Virus record (IMG/VR): IMGVR_UViG_3300028591_000110
Span: 32,001 to 96,000 of that record
From: a virus
Lineage: Duplodnaviria; Caudoviricetes
DNA length: 64,000 nucleotides
Direction: 5' to 3' (one strand)
The position numbers and the translations under genes were made by a program. The stretch's first letter is position 1; every line of letters starts with the position of its first letter. A model generated the notes under the pieces. The model was not told where the DNA came from. It ran no database searches and saw only the letters and a list, made by a program, of their open reading frames with translations. Shown piece by piece: positions 29,627 to 41,696 of this stretch.

Positions 29627-32600
29627 TTGATTCAGAGAATCAATGTTTCAGACCCTCCGAGACGGAAGATTAAAATCGGATACTACGAGGAGAACGAGTT
29701 CCGCAAGGTCGTGTTTGACGTATCCGATTGGAGGGAGGCGTACCCGAACGGCACGGCGTCTATCATCTTCAAGCGTGCTGACGGCGAGGTATATCCGATT
29801 GTGCCGAGAACTGACAGCGACGGCAATCCGGTATTTGTGCCGACGACCACGGAGACATGCAAGGTAGGCGACTGCGAGTTCCAGCTTCAGTGGAAGTCCG
29901 GAAGTGTGGTCGGCAAGACCTGCAATCTCCAAATGTGCGTGGAATCGGCGATTGGCGAATACGGAGACGTGCCGACGGATACAACCGACGACTGGATCGC
30001 ACAGATTGTTGCCGCGACGAGTGAGATTGTCGGACAGGCGCAGCAGGCGCAGAGAGCCGCTGAGACGGCTGCATCTCAGGCGCAGAGCGCAGCGCAGGCA
30101 GCTTCGCAGAGTGCTTCTTCGGCGAATGCAAGCGTCGGCAATCTCTCGGAGCTGCAGACGACGAACAAAGGCACTGTTGTCGCCGCCGTGAATGAAGTTC
30201 ACGGCGAGGCTGCTGCGGCACAGTCTGCCGCTGCTTCTGCAGCTTCGGACGCCAGCAGCGCAAACGCAGGAGTAAACACACTGAACGGCAAGGTTGGAGA
30301 TCTGAGCAATCTTACTACGGATGCGAAAAACAATCTTGTTGCTGCCGTCAATGAGGTGGATGCTCATGCGGACGCAGCACAGACTGCTGCGAATCAGGCG
30401 GCGTCTGCTGCTGCGCAAGCTGCAACGGCTGCAAGTCAGGCTGCTTCCAGCGCAGACGCGGCAAGCGGAAAAGTTGGAGATCTCAGCTCGCTGCAAACGC
30501 AATCAAAGAATAATGTAGTTGCGGCGTTGAATGAGGTGCTTCAGCGAATCGGAAGTTCGCTTAATCTTGATCTTCAAATGGATACAACAAACGGCAAACT
30601 GTATATCATGCAAGAAGGTGTTAAGGTTGGCCTAGGCGCGACAATTGCAGCAGAATCCGGTCTGTTGTTTGACAGCGGATTTGTTTCAAAGGTTGATGAC
30701 AATGGAATGCCTTCTGAGAATTATTACTTGCATCTCACTAAAGAGGGTGTAGAGCTGTCTTTGGACGATTTTGTTCCGTTTGTTGTACACGGAGACGGAG
30801 GCGGCGGTGGTGGTGGTCTCGTTTTTGACAGCGGCGCTTTTGAAAAAATTGACGAGGACGGCAACGCTTCCGACAGCTATTATCTGCATCTGAAGAGTGG
30901 GGACGAGGATATTACCGGCTTTACTCCAATTGAAGTACCGGCTGAGATGGGAAGCGGAGGCGGAGGCGCCGCAGCAGGCGGATCAACACTTATTCTGCGG
31001 TCAAGAATGGACTCCAAGACGTTTTCAATTATGGATGCGCAGACGGAGCTTCAGATGCTGTTTACATGGTCAAGCATTGACAACGCGACAGAAGAACCAA
31101 CCGGGGACGGCACTGCAAGCTGGTATGTCAACGGCACTCGCGTTGCAACAACGACCGTTGAGCAAGGTGACGGATCTTTTAACATCCGCCCATACCTTAC
31201 AACCGGACAGGCTAACTCTGTTAAGTTGTCAATTGAGGATAACTATGGCGTTGTCCGTCCATACACATGGAACGTCACGGTAACTGCTTATACCCTGACA
31301 TGGAATGCTCCTGCTTTGGAGAACCATGGTGAATCTTCAGACTATCAGCTTCGACTTGTAGCAAGCGGCGTTGGGAATAAGACGCTTGTTGTAAAGGTCG
31401 ATAACACGGAAGTGTCACGGCAGAATGTGGCTACAAGCGGCAGAACTACTACCGTTACAATTCCTGCAAATAATCTCGGACATGGAGCACACACTATTAC
31501 TGCATGGCTTGAGGTTACAATTGATGGTGATGTGATTTCAACGAATCCGCTTCGTCACGTCGGTATTTGGAAGAGATCTTCTTCCGTTACGCCGATTGTT
31601 GCAATTTACGACAGCGAGATTACGATGAAACAGCTTGCCACATACGGCATTAGATACATGGTATATGATCCTGCGTACTCTCCTGTTAATACAGAGCTTA
31701 TCGTAGACGGGGATACTGTGGCTAATGTAAGTGTTGGCCGTGACATTCAGACTTGGGCATACCGCGCAACTGAGGTCGGACAGAAAACGCTTTCAGTGAA
31801 ATGCGGTGTCACTACGGCTTCTGTCAGCGTGACGGTCGAGGATCTTGGATATGATATTGCCCCTGTAACGGATGGTCTTGTTGTTGACTTTGATCCTTCC
31901 GGACACAGCAATTCGGAGTCAAACAGAACCAGCTTTGGCTACAAGGATGCAAACGACACTGTGCATCCGCTCATTTATTCTGACGGAACAACGCAGAACC
32001 CGCACGGGGTCGCCTATCTTCCGTTTGACTGGACAAACGGCGGCTTCCAGACCGATAATGACGGCGTGACGGCTTTTGTCGTTCGGCGCGGATGCAGGGC
32101 GTGGTTTGATCGCAGCCTCTTTGCGGACAATGCAAAGGCAAGCGGAAAAAACATTGAGCTTATTTTCAAGGCAACGAATGTCAGAGACTTTGACGCCGAG
32201 ATTATGCGCTGCCTGTCTAATAATATCGGACTGCAATTCTATGCGAACACCGGGTATTTCCGGTGTCAGTCTACTTCCGTAGACATGAAGTGGTGCGAGG
32301 ACTCGAAGGCGGAAATTTGCCTGAGCGTAGAGTCTGCGACAGGCAAGGATCAGCCGAGAATGGAGATGTGGGACAATGGCACGCCGAGCAGAGGTCGAGT
32401 CTATGACACGAATACCATGTGGCTGCAGAACGACCCGGACTATTTCTGCATCGGTTCGGATGAGGCGGATGTTTGGGTTTATCGAATCCGCGCGTATAGC
32501 GCTTATCTGACCGATTCTGAGGTAAGAGCAAACTTTATTGCTGATGCTCCAACGCCGGAAGAGGCAATCAACAGATTCGTCAGAAACAACATCTATACAG

Positions 32601-35600
32601 ATGACGGCAGCACAATCAGCATTCAGCGTCTGGTTGCGGCGGCGCCAGATCTGCATGTAATTGAGATCAGAACGGCTGGTTTCCCAAGCGATAAAAAGAA
32701 CTTTATCCCATGCAGAGTAGAGCACTGGCTTGGTTCCGGCGGGCCGTCGCATCACTGGTGGACGGATTCGAACGCAGGATTTGTCTTGCAGGGAACGTCG
32801 TCTCTAAACTACATCGAAAGCTGCGGCAACCTTGATATCAGCATGGTTAACGCCACCATGACAAACGAAAGCGGTCAGGTCATGAGTGACGGATATGCAA
32901 TGACATCAAACAGCATCCCGGTTAAATATTTCAACACGAAAGCAAACACCGCTTCGTCTGACAATGCGAACAACACGGTTTCTGCGCAAATTTTTGATGA
33001 ATTTGACCCGTTTGAGCCTCTTGCTAAAGTGCGTGATCCTCGCATCAGAGACTCTGTGGAAGGTCATCCGTGCGCTGTGTTTGTCACGAATACAAGCGAC
33101 ACCGCTTTTAGGTGTGGATCAGACAAGGCGCGAGATGTTCAGCCAGGAGAAACGATCTTGTATCTCGCCGGCGATATGAATAACTCCAAGCTGACAACGA
33201 ACGTATTTGGAGAGAGCGATATCGTTGGGACAGACGGCGACGGCATCGGCGTCTTCTGTGTGGAATTTATGGATAACGGCTATCCAAGATGCAAGTTCTT
33301 GGAAGAGGCAACCATGCTGAATGAGACATGGGACAACGGGAACGGAGGCCAGTTTGAGTTCAGATACCCAACCAAGAAGGCCATTGATCCGAGCATTCAG
33401 ACGCCTCGTCAACCGACAGACGCCATGAAGATCAAGTTTATTGAGATGCAGAACTGGCTCTGCAGACTAAACCCAGATCCAACGATTGCAAATGGGCGCA
33501 GTCTCGGCGGATCTATCAGATTGTTTAATCCGGCCACTGGACTTGAAGAGACATTCATGTATGATACGCCGACGTATCGCGGCTGTAAGTTCCGTAATGA
33601 AGTCGCGAACTATTTCCATATTGACAGTCTTGTTTATTATTATGTGTTTACAACGATCTTCTGCTGCGTAGACCAGCGCTCTAAGAATACGTTTGTTACA
33701 TATGAACCTGACAAGAACGGGGTGTGGAAGTTCGATTACAGAGCGTACTACGACGGAGACACGATGCTTGGCATCAACAACAAGGGCGCTCTAACGCTGG
33801 ATTATGGCGTTGAAGACACGGATGAAGTTGTTGGCGGCGACGGTATGGCTTTTAATGCTTTCGAATCTGTGCTCTGGTGCTTGGTAAGAGACTATCTGCC
33901 GGATTATTGTTCCGCTGAGTTTAATCGTCTTGAGAGCGCCGGGCTAATCAGCGAAAGCTTTTTGAATAACCGATGGGATACGCATCAGCGTATTCGCCCG
34001 GAGGCGCTGATGACAGAAGACTTCCGGAATAAATACGACGGGCCGCTTGTTAGAAACGGAACCACTCTATATTACGAATCCATGCAGAACGGCGAGAAAT
34101 ACAGCCAGCGGCATGGATTTTTCCATTTCCAAGTCCCTTATATGCAGAGCAAATACCGCAGTGGACGAGCAAAGCAAAACAGTCTGCTTTTGGACGCTTA
34201 TTATTCTGCAACAGGTGCAATTGAAGCCGCTGCTTCTGTGGAGATTACGCCTTATATGGATATGTATATCACGATGCAGTGCGACAACTTTGGAACGGTT
34301 TCTGTAAGAGCGAAGAAGGGCGTCCCGACACGGGTAACTGTGTCAGGAAACGGAGGATCTGCCCCTGCGGGCGATACCGCTACGCAGATTTATAACTGCC
34401 AGTGGATTACGTCGTTCGATTCTTTGGCGCAATTCTATACGCAGCAGTTTGCCGGCACTTTGACAAAGCTTCGTTATCTGCCGCTCGGCAGTTCTGTTTC
34501 CGGATATCAGAACAGAAACCTGACAACGCTCGGCTCTACGGATTTGCCGATGCTTGAGTATTTGAACCTTGGCGGCCTTGTAAATCTTGAAACGAACATC
34601 GATCTTAGCAGATGTCCGTTCCTTGAGGAAGTTTACGCAAACGGCGCAGGTATCACAGGTATTACGCTTGCGCGTGGCGCAGCGATCGAGATTTTGCAGC
34701 TCCCGGCGGTTTCGCGTTTGATTGCGCTGGATTTGCAAAAGCTGCTCCCCGCAAACTTTACTTTGGATATGAGTAACCTGAGCTTGCTGCACGTTGAAAA
34801 CAGCCCCGGCGTCAATACGCAGAGCATCGTCCAGAATGCAACCGAGCTTGCATACGGTCGTCTGATTGGCGTGAACTGGAACATGGACAACCCAGATCCG
34901 GTTATGGCGTTGATCGGAAAGACCGGTCTGAACGAAGAGAGCGAGGCGGAAGGCACGTTTGTTTTGACCGGTGCAGTAACCTTTGCTGCTATTTCTCAAA
35001 ACGAGTACAACCGTCTGCATGCCGCATTCCCGAATTTGACGATCAACTATACGTCGCTTCTTTCAGAACATACGGTGCGATTCTACAATTGGGATGGCAC
35101 ACCGTTGTGGGAGGAATCTGTTCGTCACGGCGGAACGGCACCGAACCCAATTGTAACCGGAGACATTCAAACTCCGACGCGCCCAGCGTCCGGCCAATAC
35201 GAATATGTCTATCGTTACTGGTCTGAGTCTCTGGATAATGTCGTTGAGGATTTGGATGTTTACGCAGATTATCTTGCACAGGAGCGCACACTCACTGTTC
35301 GCTGGCATGACGCCGCAGGCGGCGTCATGACGCAATATACAAAGACCTGCAGATATGGGCAGGGCGTAACGTATACCGGCCCGGATATGCCGGACAGGGG
35401 CAGCGGCGCAAACAAGGAATACTGGATGGGCTGGGATAAGCCAACCACAAATGTAACAGAAGATCTTGACGTGTATCCGCAGTATGTTCTTCCGACTACG
35501 CCGCTTGGAAAGCCATTGACGTATGACTATGCGTATTCCGATGATCCAAATGATATTTCTGCATACACGTTGGCGGAGTTCTGGGGCGCTCTGAAGAGCG

Positions 35601-36271
35601 ATAATCCTGCTGCGTATCTTGCAGAGCATGACAAGATCAAGATTGTTATGCCGGCGAGCAAACCAAACAGCAATATTACAGACACTACCATTGAGCTGAA
35701 GGTTGCCGGATTTAACCGCTTCAAACTTTCTGATGGTTCCGGTAATTTCGCGAAGACGGTATTTGTAATGTGCAACTGCCTGAATGCTACTCGCGCGATG
35801 AATGGATCGAATACGAATGCTGGCGGCTGGCCTGCTACGGCTATGCGTTCGTTCCTGAACAACAGCTTGATTAAGGACTTCCCGATTCAATGGCGCAGAA
35901 TGATTCAGCAGGTCGAAGTATTGTCTACGGCAGGTGCTTCATCTACGGAGATTGTAAAGAGCAACGACTATCTGTTCCTTCCTTCCTACACGGAGGTTGG
36001 ATTTGGAACGACAGATCCGTACATTAACGAGATTGACTCTGCTGTGTACGGAAGCGATATGACATACGCAAAGTGGCCAGTCTTTACCGACAATGCATCG
36101 CGTATTAAAAGAATCGGCGGTTCCAACGGAACCGCAACTATCTGGTGGTTGCGCTCTCCGATTGCGGAGGCCGGTACTTTTTGGTATATGCTTACCTCCG
36201 GCAGTCGCGATAACGGGAACTATTATACATCCAATTCAGTTAGGGGCGTCGCGTTCGGCTTCTGCATTTGA
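29627..36271 (+). CDS. Large receptor-binding/tail fibre protein; DGR target with C-terminal CLec-like (DUF6273-type) variable domain
   Basis: BppU-like N-terminus, Ala-rich fibre repeats, LRR-like segment, C-terminal YLFLPS..EV...WWLRSP...GVAFGFCI*; directly upstream of avd/RT. Confidence 0.85.
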   Translation: MIQRINVSDPPRRKIKIGYYEENEFRKVVFDVSDWREAYPNGTASIIFKRADGEVYPIVPRTDSDGNPVFVPTTTETCKVGDCEFQLQWKSGSVVGKTCNLQMCVESAIGEYGDVPTDTTDDWIAQIVAATSEIVGQAQQAQRAAETAASQAQSAAQAASQSASSANASVGNLSELQTTNKGTVVAAVNEVHGEAAAAQSAAASAASDASSANAGVNTLNGKVGDLSNLTTDAKNNLVAAVNEVDAHADAAQTAANQAASAAAQAATAASQAASSADAASGKVGDLSSLQTQSKNNVVAALNEVLQRIGSSLNLDLQMDTTNGKLYIMQEGVKVGLGATIAAESGLLFDSGFVSKVDDNGMPSENYYLHLTKEGVELSLDDFVPFVVHGDGGGGGGGLVFDSGAFEKIDEDGNASDSYYLHLKSGDEDITGFTPIEVPAEMGSGGGGAAAGGSTLILRSRMDSKTFSIMDAQTELQMLFTWSSIDNATEEPTGDGTASWYVNGTRVATTTVEQGDGSFNIRPYLTTGQANSVKLSIEDNYGVVRPYTWNVTVTAYTLTWNAPALENHGESSDYQLRLVASGVGNKTLVVKVDNTEVSRQNVATSGRTTTVTIPANNLGHGAHTITAWLEVTIDGDVISTNPLRHVGIWKRSSSVTPIVAIYDSEITMKQLATYGIRYMVYDPAYSPVNTELIVDGDTVANVSVGRDIQTWAYRATEVGQKTLSVKCGVTTASVSVTVEDLGYDIAPVTDGLVVDFDPSGHSNSESNRTSFGYKDANDTVHPLIYSDGTTQNPHGVAYLPFDWTNGGFQTDNDGVTAFVVRRGCRAWFDRSLFADNAKASGKNIELIFKATNVRDFDAEIMRCLSNNIGLQFYANTGYFRCQSTSVDMKWCEDSKAEICLSVESATGKDQPRMEMWDNGTPSRGRVYDTNTMWLQNDPDYFCIGSDEADVWVYRIRAYSAYLTDSEVRANFIADAPTPEEAINRFVRNNIYTDDGSTISIQRLVAAAPDLHVIEIRTAGFPSDKKNFIPCRVEHWLGSGGPSHHWWTDSNAGFVLQGTSSLNYIESCGNLDISMVNATMTNESGQVMSDGYAMTSNSIPVKYFNTKANTASSDNANNTVSAQIFDEFDPFEPLAKVRDPRIRDSVEGHPCAVFVTNTSDTAFRCGSDKARDVQPGETILYLAGDMNNSKLTTNVFGESDIVGTDGDGIGVFCVEFMDNGYPRCKFLEEATMLNETWDNGNGGQFEFRYPTKKAIDPSIQTPRQPTDAMKIKFIEMQNWLCRLNPDPTIANGRSLGGSIRLFNPATGLEETFMYDTPTYRGCKFRNEVANYFHIDSLVYYYVFTTIFCCVDQRSKNTFVTYEPDKNGVWKFDYRAYYDGDTMLGINNKGALTLDYGVEDTDEVVGGDGMAFNAFESVLWCLVRDYLPDYCSAEFNRLESAGLISESFLNNRWDTHQRIRPEALMTEDFRNKYDGPLVRNGTTLYYESMQNGEKYSQRHGFFHFQVPYMQSKYRSGRAKQNSLLLDAYYSATGAIEAAASVEITPYMDMYITMQCDNFGTVSVRAKKGVPTRVTVSGNGGSAPAGDTATQIYNCQWITSFDSLAQFYTQQFAGTLTKLRYLPLGSSVSGYQNRNLTTLGSTDLPMLEYLNLGGLVNLETNIDLSRCPFLEEVYANGAGITGITLARGAAIEILQLPAVSRLIALDLQKLLPANFTLDMSNLSLLHVENSPGVNTQSIVQNATELAYGRLIGVNWNMDNPDPVMALIGKTGLNEESEAEGTFVLTGAVTFAAISQNEYNRLHAAFPNLTINYTSLLSEHTVRFYNWDGTPLWEESVRHGGTAPNPIVTGDIQTPTRPASGQYEYVYRYWSESLDNVVEDLDVYADYLAQERTLTVRWHDAAGGVMTQYTKTCRYGQGVTYTGPDMPDRGSGANKEYWMGWDKPTTNVTEDLDVYPQYVLPTTPLGKPLTYDYAYSDDPNDISAYTLAEFWGALKSDNPAAYLAEHDKIKIVMPASKPNSNITDTTIELKVAGFNRFKLSDGSGNFAKTVFVMCNCLNATRAMNGSNTNAGGWPATAMRSFLNNSLIKDFPIQWRRMIQQVEVLSTAGASSTEIVKSNDYLFLPSYTEVGFGTTDPYINEIDSAVYGSDMTYAKWPVFTDNASRIKRIGGSNGTATIWWLRSPIAEAGTFWYMLTSGSRDNGNYYTSNSVRGVAFGFCI
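30133..30545 (+). repeat. Three fibre repeats VG(N/D)LS.L.T..K...VAA.NEV with Ala/Ser/Gln spacers
   Basis: Seen in the translation. Confidence 0.7.
36132..36262 (+). repeat. DGR variable region (VR) of the target gene
   Basis: Identical over 131 bp to cassette 3 (37307-37437); lies at the 3' end of the gene. Confidence 0.95.
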
Positions 36272-36290
36272 CCGAAACGACCGAAAAACC

Positions 36291-36386
36291 GGGGCGCGAA
36301 CAGCGCCCCTGCCAATCTGCGTCAAGCACGCAGATAAAAATAGAAGAGGGCAGCGAAATATCTGCCCTCTCTCGCCGCGAAGCGGC
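36291..36386 (+). promoter_or_regulatory. Cluster of four hairpins downstream of VR (candidate DGR target-recognition cruciform/terminator)
   Basis: GGGGCGC/GCGCCCC 36291-309; ATCTGCGT/ACGCAGAT 36315-335; AGAGGGCAG/CTGCCCTCT 36345-370; GCCGC/GCGGC 36374-386. Confidence 0.65.
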
Positions 36387-36425
36387 AAAATTTTGATAAA
36401 AATTCTGAGAAATCGAATATTACAG

Positions 36426-36454
36426 TAGGCATTCAATCTCGAACATGGTAGAAT
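36426..36454 (+). promoter_or_regulatory. Candidate promoter for the avd-array-RT transcript
   Basis: TAGGCA-17 bp-TAGAAT with extended -10 TG at 36446-47. Confidence 0.45.
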
Positions 36455-36472
36455 ACCACAGAGAAAGGAGGA

Positions 36473-36958
36473 GTGCCTATGCCTCATGACAAAAGTAAGA
36501 CATCATACTCGAACCGGCCATTGCCGGAATCACAACCGAAAAAGAAAGAGCCGCCGCACTATTTGCTGCGAGCACAGGAATTGCAAGCCTATACGATCAA
36601 CACATGCAGAGACATCAACAGCAACCCAGACAGGGGCGGCAAAGGATTGTCGTTCTATCTGCTTGTGCCGATGGGAAATCTTGCGCAGGAGATCACAGCC
36701 CATTGCGCTGCTGCGGACGACAACTATCCGACATGCAGACAGGACTGGATTGATCGAAGAAGAGACTTATATGCGGCACGACGAGCAGCAAAGGAACTAA
36801 GTAGTATGCTGACTGTGGCATTACAGGTCAAAAGTTTTAATGTCAGCGAACATGTTGTAGAGGAGTGGGCGAAGAAGATCAATAGGGTGATTGCGCTATT
36901 GAATAAGACGATAAAAAGTCATGAAGAAAACAAACAGCTTTTGGAAGTAGACTATTAA
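36473..36958 (+). CDS. avd: Avd-like accessory variability determinant (four-helix bundle)
   Basis: 161 aa basic helical protein between target and template/RT; strong RBS AAGGAGG; W...I......L..  C-terminal helix. Confidence 0.7.
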   Translation: MPMPHDKSKTSYSNRPLPESQPKKKEPPHYLLRAQELQAYTINTCRDINSNPDRGGKGLSFYLLVPMGNLAQEITAHCAAADDNYPTCRQDWIDRRRDLYAARRAAKELSSMLTVALQVKSFNVSEHVVEEWAKKINRVIALLNKTIKSHEENKQLLEVDY

Positions 36959-39686
36959 GGTCATGAACTAAATCACGACGCAACTATCTGGTGGGTGCGC
37001 TCTCCGAGGTCGGCGAGTTCCGTCGGGTTTTGGTCGGCGGCTACCGGCGGCAGCACGTTGGGCGGCCCCGGCTCTGACTCAGCAGGCTCGTGGTGGGGCG
37101 TCGCGTTCGGCTTTTCTTCGGGTTTTGTCTTATCATGCGACGTGCTGTCTGGTGGTTGCGCTCTCCGCGCGTAGATGATACTACTTTTTCAAAGTTTGTA
37201 CCGGTCTCTGCGGCTGGATCTTCAAGTGTTCTGAACCATCAAGATCCGGCATCTGCCTCGAATGGCGTCGCGTTCGGCTAATCTTCTAGGTTGTGCTCTA
37301 ATAACGCCGCAACTATCTGGTGGTTGCGCTCTCCGATTGCGGAGGCCGGTACTTTTTGGTATATGCTTACCTCCGGCAGTCGCGATAACGGGAACTATTA
37401 TACATCCAATTCAGTTAGGGGCGTCGCGTTCGGCTTCCTTTGCGTGGTCATGTTCTGATTAGTTATGCAGGCGTATGGTGGTTGCGCTCTCCTGCTAGTG
37501 GCGTGGCATCACGATTCATAAGCCCGTCTAGCAGTGGGTCTTTGGATCAGTGGGGTGCGCAGTCATCTATGGGCGTCGCGTTCGGCTTCAAAATATGGTC
37601 ATACTCTTTAGAGATGATGCGCTTTCTGTGGTTGCGCTCTCCGATTGGTACATCCAATGCTGTTTGCTGGGCTAGTGATGGTTCCGGCGCACAAAAAGAT
37701 GTCTCTTGGAACGGGGCTGCGTATCCGCAGGGCGTCTCGTTCGGCTTCTCAGAATGCAGGCTATGTCCCGAGCGAGTTTTCGCCTAGCTGGTGGTTGCGC
37801 TCTCCGTTGACGGGGAACGCTGATAGGTTTGTGAACGCGAACACGAATGGTTCGTATAACAACAACAACGCCAACAACAGCAACGGCGTCGCGTTCGGCA
37901 TCTTTCTAGGTCTTGTTCTAATCGTTTGAACGCACTATCTGGTGGTTGCGCTCTCCGATTTCTGGGAGTGCGTCTTCCTTCCCGTATGTTTCTACTAGCG
38001 GATCGCAGGATTCGCGTAACGCCAGTGGAAACAACGGGGTTGGTTGTGGCGTCGCGTTCGGCGTCTTTTCAAGGTCTTGCTCTGTATTTACGCGATTATT
38101 CTGGTGGTTGCGCTCTCCGTGGACTACTGCGTCTGAGATGGTTGATATGGTCACGGAAGGCGGCGCTCGCAATGCTAACACAAGCAATAGCTACAAAGCG
38201 AGCAGTTATCACGGCGTCGCGTTCGGCATCTTTCTAGGTTTTGCCCTAAGATGCTTCGTCATTTTGGTGGTTGCGCTCTCCGCGTTCTTCAACTGACAAT
38301 GCGTTCTTAAACGTGTTGGCTACAGGCGGGGGCGATTGGAATGTCAGGGATGCAAACAACACCTATGGCGTCGCGTTCGGCTTTTCTTAGGTTGTACCCC
38401 AAAAAGTGCGGCGCACTAGCTGGTGGTTGCGCTCTCCGTGGAATGGTCGTTCTGATTATTTCGAGGTTCTTAGCTCTGACGGTTCTCGCAATAACAGCAC
38501 GTCAGGTGTTTCAGGGGACGCGCATAACGCAGGCAGGGCACAAGGCGTCGCGTTCGGCATCTCTTTTGGCAGTGCTCTAATGCGTCTCGCTCTGCATCTG
38601 GTGGTTGCGCTCTCCGTATACGGCTTATTCCGATATGATTTGTGGAGTTTTGGACAGCGGTCGTTTTACGGGTTATCTCAATAACGCTCGCGCTTCCACC
38701 CAGAATGGCGTCGCGTTCGGCTTCGGTCATGGTTGTGTCCTGATTTTGCGTCGCCTTCGCCGGTGGTTGCGCTCTCCGACGGCTGTTCGCTCGGATCTCA
38801 TTGTTCCGGTCAGCGCCGCCGGCGGCACAGTCAACAACTATAATGTTCATGGCGCTCAAGCAAGCTACGGTTATGGCGTCGCGTTCGGCTTAATTAAATT
38901 GGTCTTGCCTCATCATTGATTTGCATGTGTTGGTGGTTGCGCTCTCCGCATGTTGGAGTGTCTACTTATTTTCGCTTTTCAAACGGGAACGGATCGCCAA
39001 ATATACAAGCAGACTATAACGCGACAAGTGCGTATGGCGTCGCGTTCGGCTAATCTTCTAGGTTGTGCTCATAATCGTGACGCAACTAGCTGGTGGTTGC
39101 GCTCTCCGGCTTCTTGGGCTTCCACCTTATGTATGGTTGTGCGAGATAATGGCTTGGCTATTTCCCAAAGCGGCTATGCGAATCTTGGCACTCCGTCCGG
39201 GGCTCAGGGCGTCGCGTTCGGCTTTCTTTTGATGGGCTGTACCTTTGATGCGATTGCCGCCATGGTGGTTGCGCTCCCCGCGCCTGAATGATTCTTGGTT
39301 TCATGGCTGCGCTACTGGCGGAGTGTGGGCGAATTTTAATTCGCTGCCATCTGGAGCGGGCGTCGCGTTCGGCTTATATTATGGCTGTGTTCTATGAGCG
39401 GCGAGACTATCTGGTGGTTGCGCTCTCCACGATCCTCCTCTGAGTCGAGCGGGTATCAGGTTCTCACATCTGGTTCTCCGTCTTGGCAGACAGATGCGTG
39501 GAATCAGGGCGCCGGCGTCGCGTTCGGCATCGATTAGGGCAAGGTTATACTCTGTTGTTTATGGCGTTTTTCTGGTGGTTGCGCTCTCCGCATTCTGTTT
39601 ACGAGGGCTATTTCTTTCGCGCGTCATCTGCGGGTGATCGCGATTGGCAGTCTGGCGGAAACCCAAACACCGGCGTCGCGTTCGGC
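36959..39686 (+). repeat. Array of 17 DGR template-like cassettes
   Basis: Cores from TGGTGGTTGCGCTCTCCG to GGCGTCGCGTTCGGC (minor anchor variants in a few units) at 36989-37111, 37150-37278, 37318-37434, 37476-37586, 37626-37745, 37789-37899, 37940-38062, 38102-38227, 38265-38381, 38421-38558, 38599-38721, 38761-38889, 38931-39050, 39091-39222, 39263-39373, 39412-39528, 39573-39686; all lengths are multiples of 3 with no stops; linkers ~37-44 nt. Confidence 0.95.
37789..37899 (+). ncRNA. Cassette 6: classical AAC-rich template repeat (TR)
   Basis: 10 AAC + 1 AAT among 26 variable codons (LTGNADRFVNANTNGSYNNNNANNSN). Confidence 0.8.
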
Positions 39687-39945
39687 TTCACACGGGCGAC
39701 AGAGTAGAGTATTTGAAAACAGACCGTATGAAGAGAAGGAGGGCATGGCCTTTCTCATGTCAAAAGCATGAGATAAAACGCCTCCAAGTTGGCGTGGGTT
39801 GATCCGCGTCACAGATGACCTGCAGGCGGACGCTATCGAGCTTGGTATCGCTTGACGGTGATGCGATATTTCAAGCCTGCAGGCTACGCAGCTAGTGGAA
39901 CCGTCCGAAAAGCTGTACAGGGAGAGAATATAAATAACATAGGTG
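39687..39945 (+). ncRNA. DGR spacer (Sp) structured RNA region
   Basis: Non-coding stretch between last cassette and RT; hairpins TCTCATGT/GCATGAGA, ACGCC/GGCGT, CCTGCAGGC/GCCTGCAGG, GTATCGC/GCGATAT; AGGGCATGGCC is complementary to the cassette leaders. Confidence 0.65.
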
Positions 39946-39952
39946 ATTTGTT

Positions 39953-41209
39953 TTGACTGGTACACAGAGAAGAAAACAGAAAATCTATGAGCGGCGCGTC
40001 GCAAGGCGGGCTGCTAAACGAGCTGAACGCAATAAGACCTACGGCAGTTTTTATTGGGTGTTTCAGCACGGAAATGTTGACCGTGGTTTCAGAGACATTC
40101 GCAAGAAGCTGGTAAAGTGCGCTGACGGCATTTGGTACTGTGTGCACGCTCCGATTAACGAAGTACACACATGTAAGAAGTTAATGAACGGGACGTACAA
40201 ATTCCGTCCTCTTCGCAAAAAGCATATTAAGCAGCGAGGAAAACCGAGGGATATTGGGATCGGAGCCGCAGAGGACAGGGTTGTTTTAAGTACGCTGACA
40301 ACGCACTGCTTGATGCCGATGATTGAACCAAGACTAATCAACACATGCACAGCCGGTCGTCCAAACATGGGGCCGGAGGTCGCGATGCTTCAGCTTGAAG
40401 AAATGCTGAAGGATCACTACCGAGAGCACGGCACGGACGGGTATGTTCTAATCTTCGACATCCGTAATTACTACGGCAGTATTGACCGGGATAAACTTGG
40501 CGTCATGCTGCGTAAAGTAATCAAAGATCAGCGCTTGATTCGGCTTATCGAGGATTCAAATGACGTCGCGATTCCGGACAGCAGGATCGGCATCAATCTT
40601 GGCAGCTCTACTTCTACGATGCTTGCTGCGCTTTATATGAGCGGAGTGGATCATTATATGAAAGAAGTTTTGCGGCTCAGATACTACGGGCGCCATGGGG
40701 ATGATGGGTTTATCATTCATCATGATAAGGAGTTTCTGCTTTCCGTTCTGGACGCGCTGCGCGAAAAGACTTCTGAGCTTGGTTTGGAATTGCATCCGAA
40801 GAAAACGCAGATTATCAAACTTACCAAAGGGTTCCGATGGCTGAAAGTGAAGTGGAAACTGAAAGAAACCGGATACGTTGTGAAGAAAATGAATCACGAT
40901 ATCGTGACGCGAGACAGCAAAAAGATGAAGAAATGCCTTGCTTTAGAGGCAGAAGGTCTTACTACTATGAATTATATTCGCAATTCTGTGTGGAAGGGCT
41001 GGCTGAACAAGTCGAAGAATCCGGATCTTATCAGGCAAAAGCCGATCCGCAAAGGCTTCAAAAAGCGGTTTAGATATGATAATTACTTTGTCAGGATAAA
41101 AATGGCGAACAGGTATTACAGCCTGTTCGGTGAGTGGGAGGGCTGTAATAGAGATGTATTTTATCAAATTATTGGAGAACGACGAAGTAGTCGGAGCCGA
41201 GCAGCTTGA
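39953..41209 (+). CDS. DGR-type reverse transcriptase with atypical motifs
   Basis: RGKPRDI, EDRVV, YVLIFDIRNYYGSID, GINLGSSTS, YYGRHGDDG, LGLELHPKKTQI, GFRWLK; 418 aa; no maturase or endonuclease domain seen. Confidence 0.9.
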   Translation: MTGTQRRKQKIYERRVARRAAKRAERNKTYGSFYWVFQHGNVDRGFRDIRKKLVKCADGIWYCVHAPINEVHTCKKLMNGTYKFRPLRKKHIKQRGKPRDIGIGAAEDRVVLSTLTTHCLMPMIEPRLINTCTAGRPNMGPEVAMLQLEEMLKDHYREHGTDGYVLIFDIRNYYGSIDRDKLGVMLRKVIKDQRLIRLIEDSNDVAIPDSRIGINLGSSTSTMLAALYMSGVDHYMKEVLRLRYYGRHGDDGFIIHHDKEFLLSVLDALREKTSELGLELHPKKTQIIKLTKGFRWLKVKWKLKETGYVVKKMNHDIVTRDSKKMKKCLALEAEGLTTMNYIRNSVWKGWLNKSKNPDLIRQKPIRKGFKKRFRYDNYFVRIKMANRYYSLFGEWEGCNRDVFYQIIGERRSSRSRAA

Positions 41210-41696
41210 AGTGCTTGAGTATGTTCGACAAGATACAAACGGAAATAATATTCGATGCTCTGTGCTTTCGGCGCAGGGCATCATTTCATTAGATGGCGGT
41301 TCGATCTATCAACTTGACGGCAAGCCCGCAATGGTCGGCGGGTATAAGATCGCTGTGTTTATTGATGGCGACGAATACAGCGAGATTATCCAGGAGCTTC
41401 AGGACGAAGATCCGGATGACGACATTCCCGCCAGCGACGAGGCTTTGACGCGGGAGGAGCTGACTGCGAAAGTAGCAAAGCTTGAGGAAATGAACACCAT
41501 GCTTACAGGAATGCTCCTCGAAAACCGAGAGGACAGCATGAAAGCGTCCAAGGTATACAGCGAGGGCGATCTCATCATTGTAAACGGCGAGCTGTATAAG
41601 GTTCTTGCAAAAATCGCAAACGGTTCTTTGCTGACTGTAGGCACAAATGTAAAACAAACAACTATTGCGGCTGAGATTGCCGCATTAAGTGTATGA
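41154..41696 (+). CDS. Hypothetical tail-fibre-associated protein
   Basis: Acidic ORF overlapping the RT 3' end; C-terminal Y..GD.I..NG.LYKV module. Confidence 0.6.
   Translation: MYFIKLLENDEVVGAEQLEVLEYVRQDTNGNNIRCSVLSAQGIISLDGGSIYQLDGKPAMVGGYKIAVFIDGDEYSEIIQELQDEDPDDDIPASDEALTREELTAKVAKLEEMNTMLTGMLLENREDSMKASKVYSEGDLIIVNGELYKVLAKIANGSLLTVGTNVKQTTIAAEIAALSV

Follow-up and report, generated by a model that had tools for sequence, protein, structure and literature searches.

The phage examined here encodes a DGR-lineage reverse transcriptase (RT) in which two motifs regarded as hallmarks of such enzymes have been rewritten: the YxDD loop, YMDD in most DGR RTs, reads HGDD, and the DGR RT signature [I/V/L]GxxxSQ (PMC7826257) keeps its Leu and Gly and ends in Thr in place of Gln. 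This deviation exceeds chance and is statistically unusual. Judged from sequence comparisons, the protein looks like a functional, derived enzyme of the DGR lineage that is under selection. The best explanation, offered tentatively, is that a functional DGR RT has had its pocket rebuilt stepwise, works with the standard DGR machinery, and would misincorporate opposite adenine at a frequency much below that of bRT, the enzyme of Bordetella phage BPP-1.

The retroelement locus

The window, that is, the whole 64,000-nucleotide stretch of DNA that was analysed, forms part of a complete 135.6-kb phage record in IMG/VR. The features on which the argument draws are listed in their order along the window.

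36132-36262, plus strand: VR, at the 3' end of a 2214-aa tail-fibre-like gene (29627-36271); an exact copy of cassette 3
36473-36958, plus strand: Avd-like accessory gene, 161 aa (TIGR02436 E 1e-3 and PF05635 E 0.047, both below cut-off; weak four-helix-bundle matches)
36989-39686, plus strand: 17 cassettes in tandem; the WWLRSP and GVAFG anchors are conserved and each middle is unique
37307-37437, plus strand: cassette 3, donor or twin of VR (131/131 identity)
37789-37899, plus strand: cassette 6, the only cassette of classic mutagenic-template design (10 AAC)
39690-39945, plus strand: RT-2 RNA (Rfam RF03077), a spacer/priming RNA that separates the last cassette from the RT gene
39953-41209, plus strand: DGR-lineage RT gene, an intact 418-aa ORF (Pfam RVT_1; bRT fold match)
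40220-40264, plus strand: fingertips loop with K90, K97, R99, I101 and I103 (bRT alignment)
40454-40489, plus strand: motif 3, FDIRNYYGSID; it contains the catalytic D169, and its YY occupies the steric-gate position (alignment)
40598-40618, plus strand: motif 4, LGSSTST (L216-T222), against the DGR signature [I/V/L]GxxxSQ; T222 corresponds to bRT Q187 (bRT pairwise alignment)
40694-40705, plus strand: motif 5, HGDD (H248-D251), against YMDD; equivalent to bRT Y213-M214-D215-D216

The context is that of a DGR, with a VR target at the 3' end of its gene, template repeats, an Avd-like gene, for which the match is weak, and a spacer RNA. The RT-2 RNA is full length and scores 72.3 bits against a gathering threshold of 40 (E 1.3e-15); the RNAs upstream of canonical relatives score 111-158 bits, and priming RNA and enzyme appear to have diverged in parallel. 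Searches of the phage genome found no second VR or target and no second RT. The preliminary description had reported an exact VR copy, and the comparison bears this out: VR and cassette 3 are identical over 131/131 nt, 23 of them adenines, and the identity ends at both borders. Flanks of 29 nt and 22 nt are shared around the copy.

Cassette 6 carries its adenines at codon positions 1, 2 and 3 in the proportions 15/13/0; its Asn-rich pattern is similar to that of the templates of two canonical RT-2-type DGRs (L027 and L023). Equal-length cassette pairs differ at about half of their positions, at all four bases and with no adenine bias, a pattern that rules out the cassettes as adenine-mutagenised copies of cassette 6. 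Arrays of this kind were sought in several collections. An exact anchor search of the viral contigs of IMG/VR returned loci with one or two anchors only and no arrays, and a degenerate anchor-pair search of GTDB genomes gave at most two per locus and again no arrays. An anchor-pair search of metagenomes yielded two contigs, L032 (JAEEGL012477538.1, 1470 bp) and L033 (ODAI010748587.1, 1233 bp), that consist almost entirely of tandem WWLRSP/GVAFG cassettes, 7-8 in the one and 6 in the other, with in-frame lengths and no RT. Their cassette middles are entirely different, none being common with this phage, and the array architecture is therefore present in other elements. The association of the odd RT with a cassette array comes from a single locus.

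An intact enzyme with two altered motifs

The RT gene starts with TTG and is preceded by AGGTGA. At its other end, the last 80 nt are overlapped in a different frame by a 188-aa ORF (41130-41696), whose Pfam matches, CBM_5_12 and PDZ_4, are weak and below threshold and which is not obviously part of the retroelement. The RT matches Pfam RVT_1 above the cut-off (E 4.5e-11), and its best solved relative is bRT (8ub7; E 1.5e-15 from the single sequence). The best fold match of an AlphaFold (AF2) model (pLDDT 92, pTM 0.88) is 8ub7_A, the active state of bRT, with a TM score of 0.82 on the target. Taken jointly, RVT_1, the invariance of the three catalytic aspartates (D169, D250 and D251) and the AF2 model indicate an RT fold composed of fingers, palm and thumb. 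The three aspartates, the first of them within FDI, and K97/R99 of the fingers, all said earlier to have been kept, do indeed lie in invariant columns of a 90-sequence alignment.

Around the altered motifs, residues 213-229 read GINLGSSTSTMLAALYM (40589-40639) and residues 245-253 read YGRHGDDGF; the coordinates that the preliminary description had given for HGDD, in an intact 418-aa ORF, are exact. Its broader statement that the motifs deviate from the DGR consensus holds for Q222T and for HGDD. It does not hold for the Pro of GIPIG or the Asn of ANxY: this part of the consensus quoted there (G-L/I-P-I-G-N, and the N of ANxY) resembles bRT and lacks conservation among the nearest relatives, so that the meaningful changes in motif 4 are Q222T and weaker ones at positions 219 and 226. 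The altered regions had also been said to line the dNTP/template pocket, in agreement with the cryo-EM structure of bRT, in which Q187 contacts the incoming base (10.1101/2023.10.23.563531). The equivalent residues of HIV-1 RT, Pro157, Tyr183 and Met184, influence dNTP binding, and the M184I substitution raises accuracy four-fold (PMC3185545).

A separate peculiarity lies in the N-terminal extension, where residues 55-58 read K-C-A-D (40118-40129) and the W-K pair of GVxWKxS, 92-99% conserved in relatives, is absent. In bRT, a conserved Lys29 on the N-terminal loop contacts the 5' phosphate of the template; the alignment around K55-C56 is too loose to equate Lys29 with the Lys of the lost WK motif.

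Kinship with DGR reverse transcriptases

Sequence comparison places the protein with the DGR RTs and not with those of group II introns, retrons or defence systems, and the profile that reaches bRT at 4.3e-50 reaches group II enzymes at 1e-25. All 134 matches in phage records fall below 36% identity, and the recognised records among them are, as we take it, DGR-bearing phages. Other RT classes were tried and rejected. For a group II intron RT/maturase, the TIGR04416 score is 104 bits against a cut-off of 300 and Pfam gives no Intron_maturas2 match; no intron RNA was found in an Rfam scan of 36000-41300. Retron and defence RTs (Drt2, Drt3a, Drt4 and retron St85) score 23-56 bits against NCBIfam cut-offs of 200-450. 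The GDD triplet is a hallmark of RNA-dependent RNA polymerases, and a viral enzyme of that class was rejected as well: the RdRP_1 match reaches 19.1 bits against a gathering threshold of 23.9 (E 6e-4), is local around GDD (residues 246-314), and most likely reflects no more than the Gly that precedes the Asp pair.

A small clade and the order of change

A word-indexed search of 5.8 billion clustered proteins placed the RT in a clade of five 90%-identity clusters, P0001 to P0005. The other four are 87% (P0002), 50% (P0003) and 46% (P0004 and P0005) identical to P0001, which represents this RT, and every one of them is a full-length protein from an assembly of its own. These relatives occur only in Logan/ENA assemblies; when viral, metagenome and genome collections were searched with the clade alignment, for loci based on P0016, and for loci based on the tail-fibre C-terminus, no relatives were found. 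In a HMMER scan of 1.84 billion representatives, which gave 6755 hits, the next cluster past the query's own is only 40% identical. The alignment of the five clade members has 122 invariant columns, among them every catalytic and fingertip residue.

A FastTree analysis of 152 proteins, with group II-like proteins as the outgroup, nests the RT within the canonical DGR RTs and resolves its neighbourhood as ((((P0001,P0002)100,P0003)96,(P0004,P0005))86,P0016)100. Along this series, P0016 has VGxxxSQ with YGDD, P0004 and P0005 have LGxxxS(A/T) with YGDD, and P0003 and P0001/P0002 have LGxxxST with HGDD; the series therefore begins with the replacement of M by G, continues with that of Q by T/A and ends with that of Y by H. 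A Tyr-site His has at least three further origins, in P0038 (HNDD), P0076 (HMDD) and P0140 (HADD), and is conserved within each of these clusters. For Q to T just two origins are seen, one in this clade and one in P0038, and His is also present in both lineages, which hints that the Tyr-site and Gln-site positions may be coupled.

Rarity of the pocket changes

Residues were equated with those of bRT by pairwise alignment, with the bRT numbering of PMC7826257 and 10.1101/2023.10.23.563531. The residues kept are R99 (bRT R74), I101 (I76), L216 (I181), G217 (G182) and D169/D250/D251 (D138/D215/D216); those changed are T222 (Q187), H248 (Y213), G249 (M214), K90 (F66) and I103 (A78). Column frequencies were taken from the 84 nearest non-clade DGR RT representatives, whose consensus is LGxxxSQ with RYMDD and whose motif 4 region reads GLGLGSQxSQxxA. 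At the position of T222, 83 of the 84 have Q, and T or A appears only in this clade and in P0038. The H248 column has Y in 78, H in 3 and F in 3, and that of G249 has M in 67/84. K90 replaces an F found in 77/84, I103 an S or A (75/84), S219 a Q or E (75/84) and A226 a V, L or I (75/84), while the column of Y174, at the steric-gate position, is F in 77/84; that of R99 is invariant. In total, at least 8 pocket-lining positions that are 80-99% conserved in the 84 relatives are altered across the clade. In a wider motif table of 164 proteins, YMDD occurs in 125, HGDD only in P0001-P0003, and the final Q of GxxxSQ in all but a handful.

Evidence on adenine mutagenesis

The differences confined to template adenines that mark a mutagenic DGR are absent from the VR, which shows 0 differences from cassette 3 over 131 nt with 23 adenines. 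If the VR was written once by this RT, the chance of an exact copy at 50% misincorporation per adenine is 1e-7, and the 95% upper bound on the rate is 12%; a rate of 8%, like that of bRT R74A, leaves 23 adenines untouched in 15% of transfers. The stored cassettes also differ from mutagenic templates. Codon position 3 accounts for 58/320 cases of adenine in their middles, whereas in ten canonical templates it accounts for 13/280 (p 2e-7), and stop-prone Lys codons number three, in three cassettes, against none in the same ten. In all, 16 of the 17 cassettes lack the codon design of a mutagenic template.

The motif pair was also sought in 33 single-template DGR loci, 12 reached via P0038 and P0184 and 21 via the WWLRSP/GVAFG anchors. 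None of the 33 has HGDD with ST; 31 have YMDD, and two, L030 and L031, have HMDD with CQ. These two phages (IMG/VR 3300045988_165841 and _118615) each have a single template, and 12/13 and 13/14 of their mismatches fall at template adenines. They are near-identical, and their VRs differ from each other at 16 sites, almost all of them template adenines. This is a clear natural case of diversification still in progress under an enzyme that lacks the canonical Tyr, and active mutagenesis is therefore possible with His at that site. A finding that would have told against a link between motifs and fidelity, namely the same motifs in mutagenic single-template DGRs, is thus borne out in part: the HGDD and ST pair is absent from 33/33 loci, and His alone is present in two mutagenic ones.

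Site-directed mutagenesis of bRT provides the experimental background (PMC7826257). R74A lowers misincorporation from 52% to 8% and I181N from 52% to 24%, and R74 and I181 are the only two bRT residues found in this way to promote adenine misincorporation; Q187P, M214V and F66V/S leave its frequency unchanged, and enlargement of A78, the position occupied here by Ile (I103), raises it. Both of the promoters are kept in the phage enzyme, R74 as R99 and I181 as L216.

Explanations weighed

According to the favoured explanation, the pocket would have been rebuilt stepwise, first M to G within YMDD, then Q to T/A within GxxxSQ and then Y to H, with positions 219 and 226 and the counterparts of F66 and A78 altered as well. 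The standard DGR machinery would have been kept, with an Avd-like partner and the RT-2 spacer RNA priming cDNA synthesis on an adjacent template RNA. Any of the 17 stored cassettes could provide that template, and the cDNA would take the place of the VR, which encodes the tip in the tail-fibre gene, between two anchors free of adenine. The present VR would have been written by this enzyme, which may misincorporate opposite adenine much less than bRT, at about 12% per adenine or less, and the rebuilt pocket would be the likely cause of the raised fidelity. On the comparative evidence, a link between the rewriting of the motifs and a loss of adenine mutagenesis is plausible, if some way from secure. 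The further proposal that an adenine-hypermutating DGR sub-lineage became one that copies faithfully through the rebuilding of its pocket (YMDD to HGDD, GxxxSQ to GxxxST, and the F66/A78 equivalents) is doubtful.

The strongest rival, which has a serious claim while falling short of probable, holds that the enzyme is a normal adenine-mutagenic DGR RT. The odd residues would then be neutral, mutually compensating, or engaged in tuning a trait other than adenine fidelity, for example the fit to the divergent RT-2 RNA, primer placement or processivity, and the exact VR copy would be due either to DNA gene conversion from anchor to anchor or to the current VR having recently been archived into the array. 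Recombination or conversion at the DNA level between the shared flanks could produce such a copy. Much of what speaks for a normal mutagenic RT may equally be held against a rise in fidelity. The only promoters of mutagenesis that have been proven are both kept, as R99 and L216; Q187P and M214V, like F66V/S, are neutral for misincorporation frequency in bRT, and the A78 enlargement, matched here by Ile at I103, acted in the opposite direction (PMC7826257). The natural HMDD enzyme of L030/L031 is adenine-mutagenic. Rich in AAC and free of adenine at third codon positions, cassette 6 has the textbook design of a mutagenic template, and its pristine state would be hard to explain if mutation had ceased before the split from the 50%-identical P0003. 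A single exact copy would be compatible with an 8% rate (probability 0.15). The divergence of the RT-2 RNA (72 against 111-158 bits) also fits a normal mutagenic RT, in that RNA and enzyme may have co-diverged. Set against this rival, however, is the lack of any adenine-specific difference in the locus, where none of the 23 adenines differs between VR and cassette 3 and the differences within cassette pairs involve all four bases. In addition, 16/17 cassettes have adenines at silent positions and three have stop-prone codons, a poor design for mutagenic templates, and eight pocket changes at near-invariant positions would be unusual for neutral drift.

That the RT is degenerate or inactive, the relic of a former DGR whose cassettes are now exchanged by recombination only, is very improbable. 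The preliminary description had allowed for a degenerate enzyme, and the deviation of two hallmark motifs and the absent footprint of adenine mutagenesis would both fit one. Yet the 418-aa ORF is intact and has a ribosome-binding site, the catalytic triad and the fingertip residues are invariant, the model is confident and bRT-like, and the partner RT-2 RNA upstream is kept at full length. Full-length relatives from independent samples, at 46-87% identity, have conserved the odd residues too, and the suggestion has been set aside.

It is likewise most unlikely that the pocket was rebuilt for another substrate, either the modified dNTP pool of a hypermodified-DNA phage or ribonucleotides: the changes cluster at the incoming-nucleotide site and a weak RdRP_1 match covers residues 246-314, but this match stays below its cut-off (19.1 against 23.9 bits), the steric gate carries a Tyr (Y174) as in DNA-making RTs, a role assigned from HIV-1 Tyr115 (PMC3185545), and the complete 135.6-kb record contains no PurZ-like adenylosuccinate synthetase, thymidylate-synthase-family enzyme or TGT/DpdA.

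Implications

The interest of the lineage lies in the coincidence of three conditions, namely that both promoter residues are kept, that other pocket residues are replaced stepwise, and that a template library exists with an expressed copy unchanged at adenines. If these hold together, the lineage constitutes a ready-made series for residue-swap experiments. How DGR enzymes confine their infidelity to adenine is, to our knowledge, still unresolved. Were the pocket changes to raise fidelity, they would explain how a hypermutation device evolved into a cassette-swapping device and would offer a handle on error rate for the engineering of DGR-based mutagenesis tools. Were they not to do so, two 'hallmark' DGR motifs would prove dispensable for function. 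A faithful copier would mean that a mutagenic retroelement had given rise to RNA-mediated cassette swapping for the receptor-binding tips of a phage, and the nested relatives with SQ and YGDD, ST and YGDD, and ST and HGDD would be natural intermediates with which to map the residues responsible for adenine infidelity.

Comparison with known systems

Of the other lineages found, the P0038 cluster (24 members, Logan/ENA only), which has HNDD with GSDSVT, is alone in combining a Tyr-site His with a Gln-site Thr. It differs in forming a separate branch beside relatives with SQ and YQDD/FNDD, and in having Asn, not Gly, before DD; its relatives in IMG/VR are all canonical YMDD. The P0184 cluster (165 members, from uncultured Caudoviricetes), to which L030/L031 belong, shares with the present system the His in YxDD and the RT-2 RNA. 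Its enzymes keep Met and Gln, however (HMDD, GxxxCQ), work with a single template and ongoing adenine mutagenesis, and acquired their His independently.

The nearest canonical relatives are the RT-2-type DGR RTs of Firmicutes and gut phages (e.g. L044, L052, L006 and L041), at 30-35% identity. Their loci have the RT-2 RNA in the same position and the same WWLRSP...GVAFG target anchors as this phage, whereas all of them have LGSQxSQ with RYMDD, one template, and VR-template differences at adenines.

Among solved structures, bRT of Bordetella phage BPP-1 (PDB 8ub7, with Avd and the avd-TR-Sp RNA) is the best match in both sequence and fold. The two enzymes share the catalytic triad and the equivalents of R74, I76, I181 and G182, and in both systems the RT has an Avd-like partner and lies downstream of a structured spacer RNA, while a tail-fibre gene carries the VR C-terminally. 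They are about 24% identical, and the phage RT departs from bRT at Q187 (T), Y213 (H), M214 (G), F66 (K) and A78 (I). Where bRT draws on one template, the system described here has 17, and its VR carries no adenine substitutions.
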